Notes: generated by a model from the sequence alone, not told the origin. Shown: positions 48,808 through 61,631, numbered from the stretch's first letter. The stretch is DNA of 64,000 nt from Candidatus Adlerbacteria bacterium (GCA_037135035.1 JBAXLB010000002.1:4993-68992), one strand, 5' to 3'. Translations and numbers: made by a program.

Positions 48808-49701
48808 ATGAGGGCACCAACGTATCTCCCGAGTAGTCAATTTTCCGTTATTGTAGGGTCATTATTACTGTCGGTTGGTCTTGTATTCGCAGCAAACGCG
48901 TTTACCACACATGCTCCAGCACCCGCTGTGACGGTTGCACAGACAACAGATACAAGTAGTACAAACCCAGACTGGAAAGCATCACTCGACACCGTGCAGG
49001 CAGAGTCGGGAACCAACCTCCCAACCCCAGCCGACCAAAATGATGTCAACAACCTTTTACAAGCGGCGCAAAGCTCAAATATTACCGACCGCCTTTCACG
49101 TACCTTGCTTGTTAACTTAAGTAATGCAAAAACCCAAGGGTTAGGCGACGACATCCCAACACAAAACGAACTTATTACTGGCGCACTTGCCCAAATTGGA
49201 ACAGCGCAGCCTACAAAACAATATACTGACGCTGACATTAAGGTTACCGACAACTCATCCAGGAGTTTGCACGACTATGGCAATGCGTTAATGAGTGTTT
49301 TTAAGAAAAATGCAAATGGAGAATTCCTTAAAACACTGTCTATTGTCGACAATGTCACTGCAACCAACGATCCAAGCGAGTTTAAAGAATTCCCGGCGCT
49401 GCAAAAAAAGTATGAGGTGTTTATACAGGGAATGCTTGCTATAGTCGTACCAAAAACACTCCTTCCATTCCACTTAGGACTCTTAAATGACTTTGCAAAA
49501 ATGATCGCAACATATGGAGACATGCAAACTGTGTTGTCGGACCCACTGCGTGGACTTTCAGGTATCCAACAATACAACTCACTTGCGCAAGATGGCGGCA
49601 AAATGTTTATAAATATCGCGCAGGCACTAGAGAAAAACGGTATACTTTTTACTAAGGACGAGTCGGGTGCTTCGTGGGCTTTGTTTGGAACCCCACATTA
49701 A
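48808..49701 (+). CDS. membrane-anchored hypothetical protein (first gene of the T4SS-like block)
   Basis: 297 aa. N-terminal TM/signal anchor. Thr/Ala-rich linker. Confidence 0.5.
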   Translation: MRAPTYLPSSQFSVIVGSLLLSVGLVFAANAFTTHAPAPAVTVAQTTDTSSTNPDWKASLDTVQAESGTNLPTPADQNDVNNLLQAAQSSNITDRLSRTLLVNLSNAKTQGLGDDIPTQNELITGALAQIGTAQPTKQYTDADIKVTDNSSRSLHDYGNALMSVFKKNANGEFLKTLSIVDNVTATNDPSEFKEFPALQKKYEVFIQGMLAIVVPKTLLPFHLGLLNDFAKMIATYGDMQTVLSDPLRGLSGIQQYNSLAQDGGKMFINIAQALEKNGILFTKDESGASWALFGTPH

Positions 49702-49721
49702 ATACTGCGGGAAGAAACTAC

Positions 49722-59700: not shown

Positions 59701-60425
59701 TGTATAAAAAATTATTTCCTATTCTTTTGGTTCTTGTATTTGGCGTTATTCCACTTAAAATTCAGGCCCAATTTACTGCTGGATGTATAACCCTTGGCTC
59801 TACTGATCCTACGACAACACCTCCTGATCCAAAAACTAATCAATGTCCACCGGGCACGAGACCTATTAATAGTAGTGGTCAAGCCGCTACTTTTACAAAC
59901 GTTCCTAACCTTGGGTACATACCTCTTGAGCCTTTAGTAGGGGAAGATTCAAAACAAGCAAATTTTTGCCAGCTTTTAAATTTAATTTTTAAAACACTTA
60001 TTTATTTAGGGGGTATGGCTGCCGTCTTGTTTTTAGTGTTGGGTGGTATCACGTACATGGTTTCCGAAGTAGTAGACAAAAGGGGGGCCGCACGTGAACG
60101 TATTAAAGCCGCTGTATTAGGACTTGTATTACTTCTTGCTTCGTGGATTATCCTAAATACTATTAATCCTCAACTAGTTACCGCTTGCAGTATTCTTAAT
60201 CCAACTACATTACCAGGCTTAGCAGCACCGTCTACGTCAAACCAGATTCAAGACGCAGAGAAAAACTGCTTAGCATTACCTGAAGTAAACGGGAAAAAAG
60301 CGATACTTAAAACGGGGGATCCGACACCTGGTCTTTTTGGATGCAGTCCCGGAATCATTCCTCGAGGTTGGGCTTGCTCTGTTATACGACCCGGTGAAAT
60401 TTGTCTTGTTCCTCCCATACTCTAA
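59697..60425 (+). CDS. signal-peptide protein with two central TM helices and Cys-rich termini (possible VirB2/TrbC-like pilin-related)
   Basis: 242 aa. Signal peptide, Pro/Thr-rich segment, two hydrophobic helices (LIYLGGMAAVLFLVLGGITYMV, AAVLGLVLLLASWIILNTI). Assignment is weak. Confidence 0.3.
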   Translation: MMYKKLFPILLVLVFGVIPLKIQAQFTAGCITLGSTDPTTTPPDPKTNQCPPGTRPINSSGQAATFTNVPNLGYIPLEPLVGEDSKQANFCQLLNLIFKTLIYLGGMAAVLFLVLGGITYMVSEVVDKRGAARERIKAAVLGLVLLLASWIILNTINPQLVTACSILNPTTLPGLAAPSTSNQIQDAEKNCLALPEVNGKKAILKTGDPTPGLFGCSPGIIPRGWACSVIRPGEICLVPPIL

Positions 60426-61631
60426 ATGAAAAAGAACACTTTATATATAATGAGCGGGATAATTCTTCTAGCAATAATTTTGTTATTGCTGTTTTTCTTC
60501 TTTCGTTCCCGCTCAACAGTAGGCACACCGTCAACTGGGTTTTTTGGTATTGGCGGCAATGTCTCAACAACACAAACAGCGGGGGACTCTACGGCTACAG
60601 GACAAGGGGGGAACCTCTCTCTTCAGCGAGTGTTTAAAATTGCCGACGGTCCAGTTGCAGGGGCAACGTTTGTGCAAACATTTAGCCCGACGACCACGCT
60701 TGCACGCTACGTGATGCAAGACACGGGGCATATATTTGACCTTGCAATTGACGTCGCTGGCGCAGCTGCACGGCCAATTTCAAATACGACGATACCTGGG
60801 GTCACAGCAGCTTTTTGGGAGAAAAAAGGTGGTGCCACAATACTGCAGTATGTAGATGCGAGCGTACTTAAAAGTGTATATGCCGAATTCCCACCTGCAA
60901 CGACAACCAGTGTCGTAACCCCCGTGCGTATACAATTTTTGCCAAGCGGTATATCTGCGCTTGCTGCCTCACCCGACGGAAGCAGCTTTGCCTACACACT
61001 GCAAACAAGCAGGGGGGTTGATGGATATATAGCAAACCCCGACGGCACAAATAGTAAAAAAGTATTTTCATTACCACTTTCGCAAGTTTTACTTTCGTGG
61101 CCGGCGCAAAACACGCTACTTGCACAGGCAAAAAGTGCGGTGGGGGTACCGGGTATAGCTTTTGCTATAGATGCAAAAACTGGCGCAGTTTCACCACTGC
61201 TCTATACGCCCGGACTGTCGGTAATTGCAAATAGTGACTTTTCAAAAGTCGTATACCAAACAAGCCCCAACACACAGACGGGTGCAACTACCTATGCCCA
61301 CGATGGGCCAACAGGTAAAGACACTGATATTTCTAAAACACCACTCCCAGAAAAATGTGCGTGGAGCACTGTTGATACTACGGCTCTTTACTGCGCAGTG
61401 TCTCTTGACCCGACGCCAGCAACGTATATGGACTTGTGGCATCAGGGTCTTGTGCAAATGCCCGACAGTATAGTTTTATTTGATACTAACAATGGCGCAG
61501 GTGTTGTTATAACGCTACCGGGCAATGGGGGACCGAGTGCACCAATAGACCAGCTTGGCGTGTCGCCAGACGGGAAATACTTACTGTTTATCACCCGCGG
61601 AGACCATTCGCTTTGGGGCGTGCGACTCTAA
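60426..61631 (+). CDS. membrane-anchored beta-propeller-like (PD40/TolB-like repeat) protein
   Basis: 401 aa. TM anchor. SPDGSSFAY and SPDGKYLLF motifs typical of WD40-like beta-propeller blades. Confidence 0.45.
   Translation: MKKNTLYIMSGIILLAIILLLLFFFFRSRSTVGTPSTGFFGIGGNVSTTQTAGDSTATGQGGNLSLQRVFKIADGPVAGATFVQTFSPTTTLARYVMQDTGHIFDLAIDVAGAAARPISNTTIPGVTAAFWEKKGGATILQYVDASVLKSVYAEFPPATTTSVVTPVRIQFLPSGISALAASPDGSSFAYTLQTSRGVDGYIANPDGTNSKKVFSLPLSQVLLSWPAQNTLLAQAKSAVGVPGIAFAIDAKTGAVSPLLYTPGLSVIANSDFSKVVYQTSPNTQTGATTYAHDGPTGKDTDISKTPLPEKCAWSTVDTTALYCAVSLDPTPATYMDLWHQGLVQMPDSIVLFDTNNGAGVVITLPGNGGPSAPIDQLGVSPDGKYLLFITRGDHSLWGVRL

Follow-up and report, generated by a model that had tools for sequence, protein, structure and literature searches.

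A core-chromosomal, origin-proximal type IV secretion operon of the Patescibacteria clade in Candidatus Adlerbacteria, with a probable role in exchange with a host cell

Candidatus Adlerbacteria is placed by NCBI in the Parcubacteria group of the Patescibacteria, a lineage that holds a large share of bacterial diversity and whose members apparently live on other microbes. We analysed 64,000 nucleotides from this organism (GCA_037135035.1, JBAXLB010000002.1:4993-68992; hereafter the window, with positions counted from its first letter), and in particular the block at 48808-61631, where an initial annotation made from the sequence alone had proposed a type IV secretion system (T4SS) of Gram-positive type with many lineage-specific envelope proteins. 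Profile matches uphold that proposal. The block is very probably a T4SS operon of the core chromosome, located close to the replication origin, which belongs to the clade published for Patescibacteria, derives from the mating-pair formation (MPF) systems of class FATA and most likely serves exchange with a host cell. Systems of this type were published between 2023 and 2025 (Wang et al. 2023, PMC10633639; Quiñonero-Coronel et al. 2025, Microb Genom, PMC12102498), and a 2025 review restates the points made on them (PMC12857230). The block is a typical Parcubacteria-type member and no new kind of system; our additions are incremental, namely fusions among protein H, protein I and the pilin, an immunoglobulin (Ig)-like model of protein I, a DPYRE motif in protein D and a contrast in conservation between VirB4 and other components. 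Very few machines are candidates for supporting the host dependence of Patescibacteria; the T4SS near the origin is one of them, and it is essential in the one species tested.

The block consists of 11 tightly packed open reading frames (ORFs), all found on the plus strand as initially listed, with gaps between genes no longer than 34 nt and overlaps at three junctions. All 11 are intact and syntenic, and a separate gene call, made on a public contig whose VirB4 is identical, gave the same genes and lengths from ksgA to VirB4, where that locus ends. The ORFs are as follows.

48808-49701, plus strand: protein A (297 amino acids, aa), N-terminal membrane anchor and extracytoplasmic domain; lineage-specific accessory protein
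49674-51830, plus strand: protein B (718 aa from a GTG at 49674, or 702 aa from an ATG at 49722 as in the public annotation); from N to C terminus a transmembrane (TM) anchor, a variable Gly/Thr-rich linker, a Cys-containing conserved ectodomain and a long helical bundle
51820-54345, plus strand: protein C (841 aa), plausibly VirB6-like, polytopic, with a charged, coiled-coil-like cytoplasmic tail of about 400 aa
54367-54957, plus strand: protein D (196 aa), soluble and acidic; conserved N-terminal domain of about 100 aa, Pro/Ala-rich linker and DPYRE C terminus
54992-55423, plus strand: PrgI/VirB3-like small membrane protein (143 aa), PF12666
55425-56093, plus strand: TrsD-like protein (222 aa), free-standing equivalent of the extreme N-terminal segment of VirB4
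56123-57946, plus strand: VirB4 ATPase (607 aa) of CD1110/MPF-FATA type, without the N-terminal segment, which the TrsD-like protein carries
57981-58682, plus strand: protein H (233 aa), small polytopic membrane protein; facultative component
58672-59700, plus strand: protein I (342 aa from an ATG at 58672; alternative start at 58621), signal peptide or anchor and three predicted Ig/FN3-like beta-sandwich domains
59697-60425, plus strand: VirB2-like T4SS pilin (242 aa) with Cys-rich N- and C-terminal extensions
60426-61631, plus strand: protein K (401 aa), N-terminal membrane anchor and probable TolB-like beta-propeller

We compared the block with related loci chosen by VirB4 similarity. Scanning one genome per species yielded at least 585 loci with a relative of this VirB4, of which the best 80 were analysed, with gene content assigned by ORF-by-ORF BLAST. 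All 80 are from metagenome-assembled genomes in which VirB4 is 76-93% identical to that of the window; most are labelled as Patescibacteria or one of its groups and none is assigned outside. Two proteins of the block have exact matches that bear Candidatus Adlerbacteria locus tags. The recurring order is UvrD, KsgA, A, B, C, D, PrgI, TrsD-like, VirB4, (H), I, pilin and K, followed by jag and yidC on the opposite strand. The synteny comparison suggested in the initial annotation returned the same gene order in 80 species-level genomes, which argues that the arrangement is not due to chance. Median identities, taken over the 39 loci that hold all eight families required for the comparison, were 79% for VirB4, 59% for the TrsD-like protein and 51% for PrgI, as against 25-34% for A, B, C, D, I, the pilin and K; the flanking UvrD, KsgA and YidC gave 51%, 48% and 34%, respectively. 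The high value of VirB4 is partly a selection effect, since VirB4 similarity was the criterion by which the loci had been chosen. Even so, the motor and the exposed parts differ widely, which would fit a conserved motor coupled to a diversifying host interface. The block thus illustrates how rigidly the operon is fixed in the Parcubacteria-type lineage, with a cytoplasmic motor that is unusually conserved and exposed parts that diverge fast.

The motor is recognised by profile. VirB4 scored 392.6 bits against the NCBIfam model conju_CD1110 (cut-off 325) over model positions 184-733 of 752, and also matched the Pfam families P-loop_TraG (E 3.6e-26), AAA_10 and DUF87. Its Walker A (FAKSGSGKSY) and Walker B (LLVIDEAW) motifs, read straight from the sequence, are intact, and the hydropathy scan detected no TM segment. 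The nearest VirB4 relatives on plasmids, from Bacillota and Actinomycetota, are 31-37% identical. PrgI matched PF12666 (E 8e-10, 39.6 bits, cut-off 27) and, weakly, TcpE, and occurs in 76 of the 80 loci. Both assignments, for which the initial annotation had proposed profile searches, survived them. The ORF between these two genes matched the NCBIfam TrsD model NF041427 with an E value of 4.8e-9, which is under the curated 200-bit cut-off, yet significant. It aligns to positions 2-117 of the 752 of the CD1110 VirB4 model and to 98-233 of the Mbov_0397 VirB4 model, and it carries a precomputed PF26593 TraC-like domain. The Pfam copy that we searched gave no match to it, nine of 32 orthologues matched TraC_F_IV, and its family profile retrieved no T4SS component from the sequences in the PDB. 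Like VirB4, it has no TM segment in the hydropathy scan. Since the TrsD-like and VirB4 ORFs cover positions 2-117 and 184-733 of the same CD1110 model, they are collinear with a single full-length VirB4.

A VirB4 divided between two ORFs in different frames, with most of its neighbours lacking a database match, is what a decaying and non-functional T4SS remnant might look like, the split and the unannotatable ORFs then being signs of degeneration. We give this explanation almost no credence. The two genes are separate and adjacent in 78 of the 80 loci, which indicates that the split is the ancestral arrangement and not a lesion; both are, in the median, more conserved than the flanking housekeeping genes, and the Walker motifs and all 11 ORFs are intact. 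The same split is found in pGO1-type systems, where the detached part is TrsD (PMC12102498), and on a Pontibacillus replicon described below. The pseudogene reading of the split VirB4 was rejected on this conservation. The earlier description of a VirB4 in two ORFs is therefore correct as to the ORFs and is refined to a conserved pair of TrsD and short VirB4 in which no gene is broken.

Of the remaining membrane components, protein C has six hydrophobic segments between residues 17 and 376 and sits directly upstream of D, PrgI, TrsD and VirB4. Few of its orthologues gave matches: two of 32 to Pfam TrbL/VirB6 (best E 6e-5), three of 32 to the CD3337/EF1877 family of mobilome membrane proteins and two of 32 to the MMCAP2_0566 conjugal transfer family. 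The initial VirB6/TrbL-like call is thus plausible by topology, position and these orthologue matches, and the window copy itself gave no direct match. The gene after protein I was initially described as a Cys-rich protein with a signal peptide and two TM segments. The hydropathy scan agrees with that topology and the sequence has eight Cys; what had been missed is that the protein is a VirB2-like pilin, since residues 92-156 match PF18895 T4SS_pilin (E 1.6e-10, 41.4 bits, cut-off 26.6). A weak match to the Mbov_0395 pilin-like family of a Mycoplasma integrative conjugative element (ICE) was also found (E 1.3e-4). A canonical VirB2/TrbC pilin has about 70-120 aa and consists of a signal peptide and a two-helix hairpin. 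The hairpin core at 92-156 fits VirB2/TrbC, whereas the whole protein, with Cys-rich extensions of about 70 and 85 aa, departs from the canonical small size, and complete orthologous ORFs have between 131 and 615 aa. In 67 of the 80 loci, a gene with a pilin domain comes after protein I, usually as a single copy.

The surroundings of the block place it in the chromosome. Upstream lie ksgA, a UvrD/PcrA helicase gene (45555-47504), a peptidase gene of M23/LysM type on the minus strand, a ComM-like ATPase gene and a TrmB regulator gene; downstream, the operon adjoins a series of housekeeping genes that leads to dnaA. The genes concerned are given below.

44132-45280, minus strand: M23/LysM peptidoglycan peptidase (Peptidase_M23, E 3.8e-31, with LysM), outside the operon
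61640-62143, minus strand: jag (R3H/KH)
62172-62888, minus strand: yidC
62892-63206, minus strand: rnpA
63215-63349, minus strand: rpmH
from 63450, plus strand: dnaA, Walker A GPTGLGKTHL

As dnaA starts at 63450, the operon ends 1.8 kb from the gene of the replication initiator. The GC content of the block is unremarkable against the rest of the window. We inspected the 50 largest ORFs of the window outside the block, which are housekeeping or of unknown function, and found among them no relaxase, no VirD4/TcpA coupling protein and no VirB1-type hydrolase, as the initial annotation had stated. The sole recombinase is a tyrosine recombinase with an XerC/D-type domain pair (30474-31382, minus strand), 17 kb upstream and with housekeeping neighbours. 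As a separate observation, an 897-aa ORF with no Pfam match (31435-34128) adjoins this gene and diverges from it.

The families to which VirB4, TrsD, PrgI, the pilin and the VirB6-like protein are assigned are all those of monoderm conjugation systems. Together with the tyrosine recombinase, and with the report that the genes of type IV coupling proteins (T4CPs) often lie far from virB4 (PMC12102498), this might point to the mating-pair-formation module of a conjugative or integrative element whose relaxase, coupling protein and integrase lie outside the window. We consider this highly improbable. The operon occupies the same site between ksgA and jag-yidC in 80 species and adjoins dnaA; the recombinase is of XerC/D type and stands among housekeeping genes; the composition of the block is like that of the rest of the window. 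Moreover, the survey of Patescibacteria detected 2,474 virB4 genes and found relaxases in 103 genomes only (PMC12102498). Because the housekeeping flanks are fixed in 80 species and jag-yidC-rnpA-rpmH-dnaA directly adjoin the block, no ICE with a relaxase and integrase just outside it is recognised in the window, and the ICE reading was rejected on synteny and on adjacency to the origin. The earlier view that the block is not a conjugative element is borne out.

Several published features of Patescibacteria T4SS recur here. The survey defined a Patescibacteria VirB4 clade as sister to MPF-FATA and reported TrsD, PrgI/VirB3, VirB6 and VirB2-like proteins near virB4, and it located the systems near dnaA, dnaN, rnpA, ksgA and rpmH, particularly in Paceibacteria (PMC12102498). 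The block resembles the systems of this clade in its short VirB4 with adjacent TrsD, its PrgI/VirB3, its plausibly VirB6-like protein and its VirB2-like pilin, in the absence of a relaxase or T4CP nearby, in its chromosomal position by ksgA, rnpA, rpmH and dnaA, and in its Patescibacterium host. In Southlakia epibionticum, the T4SS resembles Gram-positive conjugative systems, has essential pilins, is reported to lack recognisable coupling or relaxase proteins, and is essential for epibiotic growth by transposon sequencing (PMC10633639). The block differs from this Saccharimonadia system. Where the latter has six pilins in an array, the block encodes one, which bears large Cys-rich extensions. 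Its virB4 is not immediately followed by a peptidase or lysozyme gene, the M23/LysM gene lying 3.5 kb before the operon and on the other strand. It also has an accessory set of A, B, D, H, I and K that is syntenic across the 80 related loci.

The M23/LysM peptidase had been put forward initially as a supplier of cell-wall lysis. The survey contains a parallel, in that some VirB1 candidates of Patescibacteria bear M23 and LysM domains (PMC12102498), and the gene keeps its upstream, opposite-strand position in all six loci whose flank extends that far. It is therefore retained as a candidate wall-remodelling partner, the functional link being inferred from this position and parallel.

We propose the following mechanism. 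The short VirB4, the detached TrsD-like N-terminal module, PrgI/VirB3 and the VirB6-like protein would form a membrane platform which, by analogy with T4SS biology in general, would draw the VirB2-like pilin out of the membrane and polymerise it to give a short pilus, or a conduit, across the cell wall. Proteins A, B, H, I and K, which are Sec-dependent or anchored, would make up the part that spans the wall and contacts the host, with three Ig-like domains, a propeller of TolB type, and a helical bundle that accompanies a Cys-rich domain. The M23/LysM peptidase may open the peptidoglycan. The machine most likely serves contact-dependent exchange with the host cell that carries these bacteria. 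Since it has neither relaxase nor coupling protein, it would not be a conjugation apparatus; we lean, at about even odds, towards traffic that is independent of a coupling protein and consists of protein or is mediated by the pilus, rather than towards DNA.

DNA could also travel inwards. A DNA-uptake machine like Helicobacter ComB or the archaeal Ced system, in which the pilus and VirB4 import host or environmental DNA for nucleotides or recombination, would agree with the lack of a relaxase and T4CP, which makes the export of processed DNA unlikely. ComM is a recombination and competence helicase in other bacteria; a ComM-like helicase gene (42459-44072) and that of UvrD/PcrA lie upstream, and VirB4 has partial matches to CedB (E 1.2e-9) and CedD (E 1.6e-3), both far under the cut-offs. 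The authors of the survey favour the import of DNA or other macromolecules (PMC12102498). However, the CedB match amounts to 37 bits against a cut-off of 700 and covers about 70 residues of the P-loop region alone; with no homologues of VirB7-10 found in Pfam or NCBIfam either, homology to ComB or Ced was not detected. ComM was found in only one of the 80 loci, whose fetched flanks rarely extend that far, UvrD and ksgA are ordinary housekeeping neighbours, and no DNA-binding component is recognisable in the operon. The main objection is that the T4SS of S. epibionticum is essential independently of ComEC, whereas ComEC-dependent DNA uptake is dispensable (PMC12102498, PMC12857230). DNA uptake is thus an unlikely account of the operon, and we prefer exchange with the host cell.

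The accessory proteins A, B, D, H, I and K appear to belong to this exchange machine, because some of them are fused to one another or to the pilin in other genomes and because their genes are tightly packed or overlap. Of the 120 best homologues of protein I, 12 carry an H-like polytopic domain fused at the N terminus and two a PF18895 pilin domain fused at the C terminus. These natural fusions tie H, I and the pilin together functionally. Protein H was initially described as a 5-TM protein; it is polytopic, but the hydropathy scan saw three hydrophobic segments only. A BLAST homologue of H was found in eight loci, and the slot is filled in about half of the loci by an ORF of 110-290 aa with two to five TM segments; in the remaining loci it is vacant. 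The model of protein I shows three Ig-like domains. The single N-terminal membrane anchors attributed to A, B, I and K are all supported by the hydropathy scan, with the TM segment at residues 14-32 in A and 8-26 in K.

Protein A occupies the same position in 34 of the 80 loci, with a median identity of 25%, and had no match in Pfam, NCBIfam or the PDB. Some of its orthologues contain a Ca-binding-like DxDxDG motif, and their profile matches in the PDB concern this EF-hand-like motif only. Protein K is present in 66 of the 80 loci and has two invariant Cys. The beta-propeller suggested for it agrees with a borderline match to PD40 (21 bits, cut-off 20.9) and a weak one of its family profile to TolB in the PDB (E 2e-3), so that the anchor stands and the propeller is weakly supported. 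In protein B, the family alignment defines a conserved region of about 430 aa after the linker, with six invariant Cys and the motif SVVNWINSGFxGSPSFV. We found 558 homologues, and the 120 best are unnamed or called hypothetical proteins, all but one without a recorded Pfam domain. In an AlphaFold2 model of protein B, block means of pLDDT (the predicted local distance difference test) are mostly above 90 in the C-terminal helical bundle and low in the N-terminal conserved domain. A Foldseek search of this model against the PDB returned nothing specific, the bundle matching generic bundles with a best E value of 0.02. One distant orthologue of protein B has a match to DUF4141, a family which we take to be linked to VirB5/TraI; the match is below the cut-off and covers 34 residues after the signal peptide, and a tblastn search of this orthologue against 72,556 plasmids found nothing. 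This lone sub-threshold match makes a role of protein B as a pilus-tip or stalk protein of VirB5/TrbJ type no more than a tentative lead.

Protein D has no TM segment in the hydropathy scan and no match in Pfam, NCBIfam or the PDB. Its residues D189, P190, Y191 and E193 are invariant, and 60 ORFs of the 80 loci have a DPYRE motif no more than 10 residues from the C terminus (2-7 in the listed examples). The motif is absent from every other family assigned by BLAST in these loci. When the family profiles of I, K, B, A and D were compared with the PDB, no T4SS component was retrieved, and the matches of the tails were generic coiled coils.

The six accessory proteins are not named in the cited parts of the published accounts of Patescibacteria T4SS (PMC12102498, PMC10633639). 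A tentative proposal, which we hold to be doubtful as a whole, is that they form an undescribed wall-spanning and host-contact apparatus, specific to Patescibacteria of Paceibacteria type, that replaces VirB5, VirB7-10 and adhesins, in which B would be a VirB5-like stalk or tip, I a pilus-associated spacer or adhesin, and the DPYRE of D a docking signal for VirB4/TrsD. If such docking took place, D would either serve in assembly or present the first substrate signal that can be recognised in a monoderm T4SS without a coupling protein. The unannotated proteins that travel with known parts or are fused to them, and the DPYRE tail of D, are targets for structural and genetic work on the cargo and direction of the system.

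Several points weigh against the interpretation of the block as a T4SS for host exchange, in addition to the selection effect on VirB4 identity. Six of the 11 proteins have no detectable relative in any known T4SS, and their roles are inferred from position, topology and fusions only. VirB8-like and VirB1-like components were not found. Protein C of the window matches no VirB6/TrbL model, nor anything else in Pfam or NCBIfam, and the profiles of its family, whether of full length or of the TM part, find no solved VirB6 in the PDB. Polymerisation of the pilin is not assured, because it is atypically large. The search for mobility genes covered 64 kb, and a T4CP or relaxase could lie elsewhere in the genome; distant T4CP homologues are reported for many Patescibacteria (PMC12102498). 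Furthermore, essentiality was determined in Saccharimonadia, which are another class and have their genes arranged differently (PMC10633639).

With monoderm MPF-FATA systems (TrsD/TrsE of pGO1, PrgF/PrgH/PrgI/PrgJ of pCF10, CD1110 of CTn2 and Mbov_0395-0397 of the Mycoplasma ICE) the block shares a VirB4 of the CD1110 family, above the cut-off, a TrsD-like protein, PrgI, a pilin-like protein of Mbov_0395/PrgF type, a plausibly VirB6-like family related to CD3337/EF1877 and MMCAP2_0566, and the absence of outer-membrane components. PrgF, which is VirB2-like, is reported to be essential for conjugation of pCF10, and nearly all of the conjugative plasmids of Gram-positive bacteria examined there encode VirB2-like proteins (bioRxiv 10.64898/2025.12.18.695078, a preprint of December 2025). 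In contrast to these systems, no relaxase, coupling protein, VirB1-type SLT/CHAP hydrolase, VirB8-like protein (PrgL/TraM) or PrgB-type adhesin was recognised, the block is not carried by a plasmid or ICE, and its VirB4 is only distantly related to the plasmid forms, as the identities given above indicate.

The best full-length plasmid match to VirB4 is on an 898-kb plasmid of Pontibacillus sp. ALD_SL1 (NZ_CP062975.1, 351801-361354). There, a 274-aa TrsD-like ORF, 28% identical to ours, overlaps the start of a 621-aa VirB4, which is the same split, and the module also contains two pilin-like genes, a 779-aa hypothetical protein in the VirB6 position, a PrgI-sized protein and an M23 peptidase, with no relaxase annotated nearby. 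It differs in having no homologues of A, B, D, I and K, in its small pilins (145-151 aa), in its Bacillota host and in the position of its M23 peptidase, a protein of 1050 aa encoded directly after VirB4. The Pontibacillus module lies beside flagellar genes, on a megaplasmid typed as non-mobilizable.

Bordetella Ptl and Brucella VirB are like the block in having no coupling protein. The toxin of Ptl is taken across the inner membrane by Sec before its export, which provides a functional analogy for an operon with many Sec-dependent proteins. Both are diderm systems of MPF class T with VirB7-VirB11, whereas homology with the block is limited to VirB2, VirB3, VirB4 and VirB6 and no effector is known here. 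The survey cites both as exceptions without a T4CP (PMC12102498).

A scan of the block for promoters and terminators was uninformative, because the counts were no higher than in shuffled sequence, and an Rfam scan of the window returned four tRNAs alone, all distant from the block. Between ksgA and the block, a gene on the minus strand (48302-48760) encodes a Pro-rich protein of 152 aa with a signal peptide; it is also called on the public contig, three close loci have homologues in the corresponding position, and the plus-strand ORF that overlaps it (48270-48680) is probably spurious. Upstream of the M23/LysM gene lie the ComM-like ATPase gene (Mg-chelatase family) and a gene for a DksA/TraR-type zinc-finger protein (40068-40439). 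Further away, a nitroreductase-family gene (10278-11087) stands before a gene of the YcaO cyclodehydratase family (11091-12623), after which comes a 431-aa ORF without a Pfam match; this group, at 9252-14317, may be an azoline-type peptide-modification cluster. An Asp/Arg beta-hydroxylase-family gene lies upstream of the YcaO group on the other strand. The window also encodes five paralogous TrmB-family regulators (851-1606, 24397-25161 and 28996-29763 on the minus strand; 6343-7077 and 41749-42483 on the plus strand) and three NYN-domain proteins (7215-7736, 8520-9194 and 35058-35705), all within 42 kb, which is a striking density for a reduced genome.

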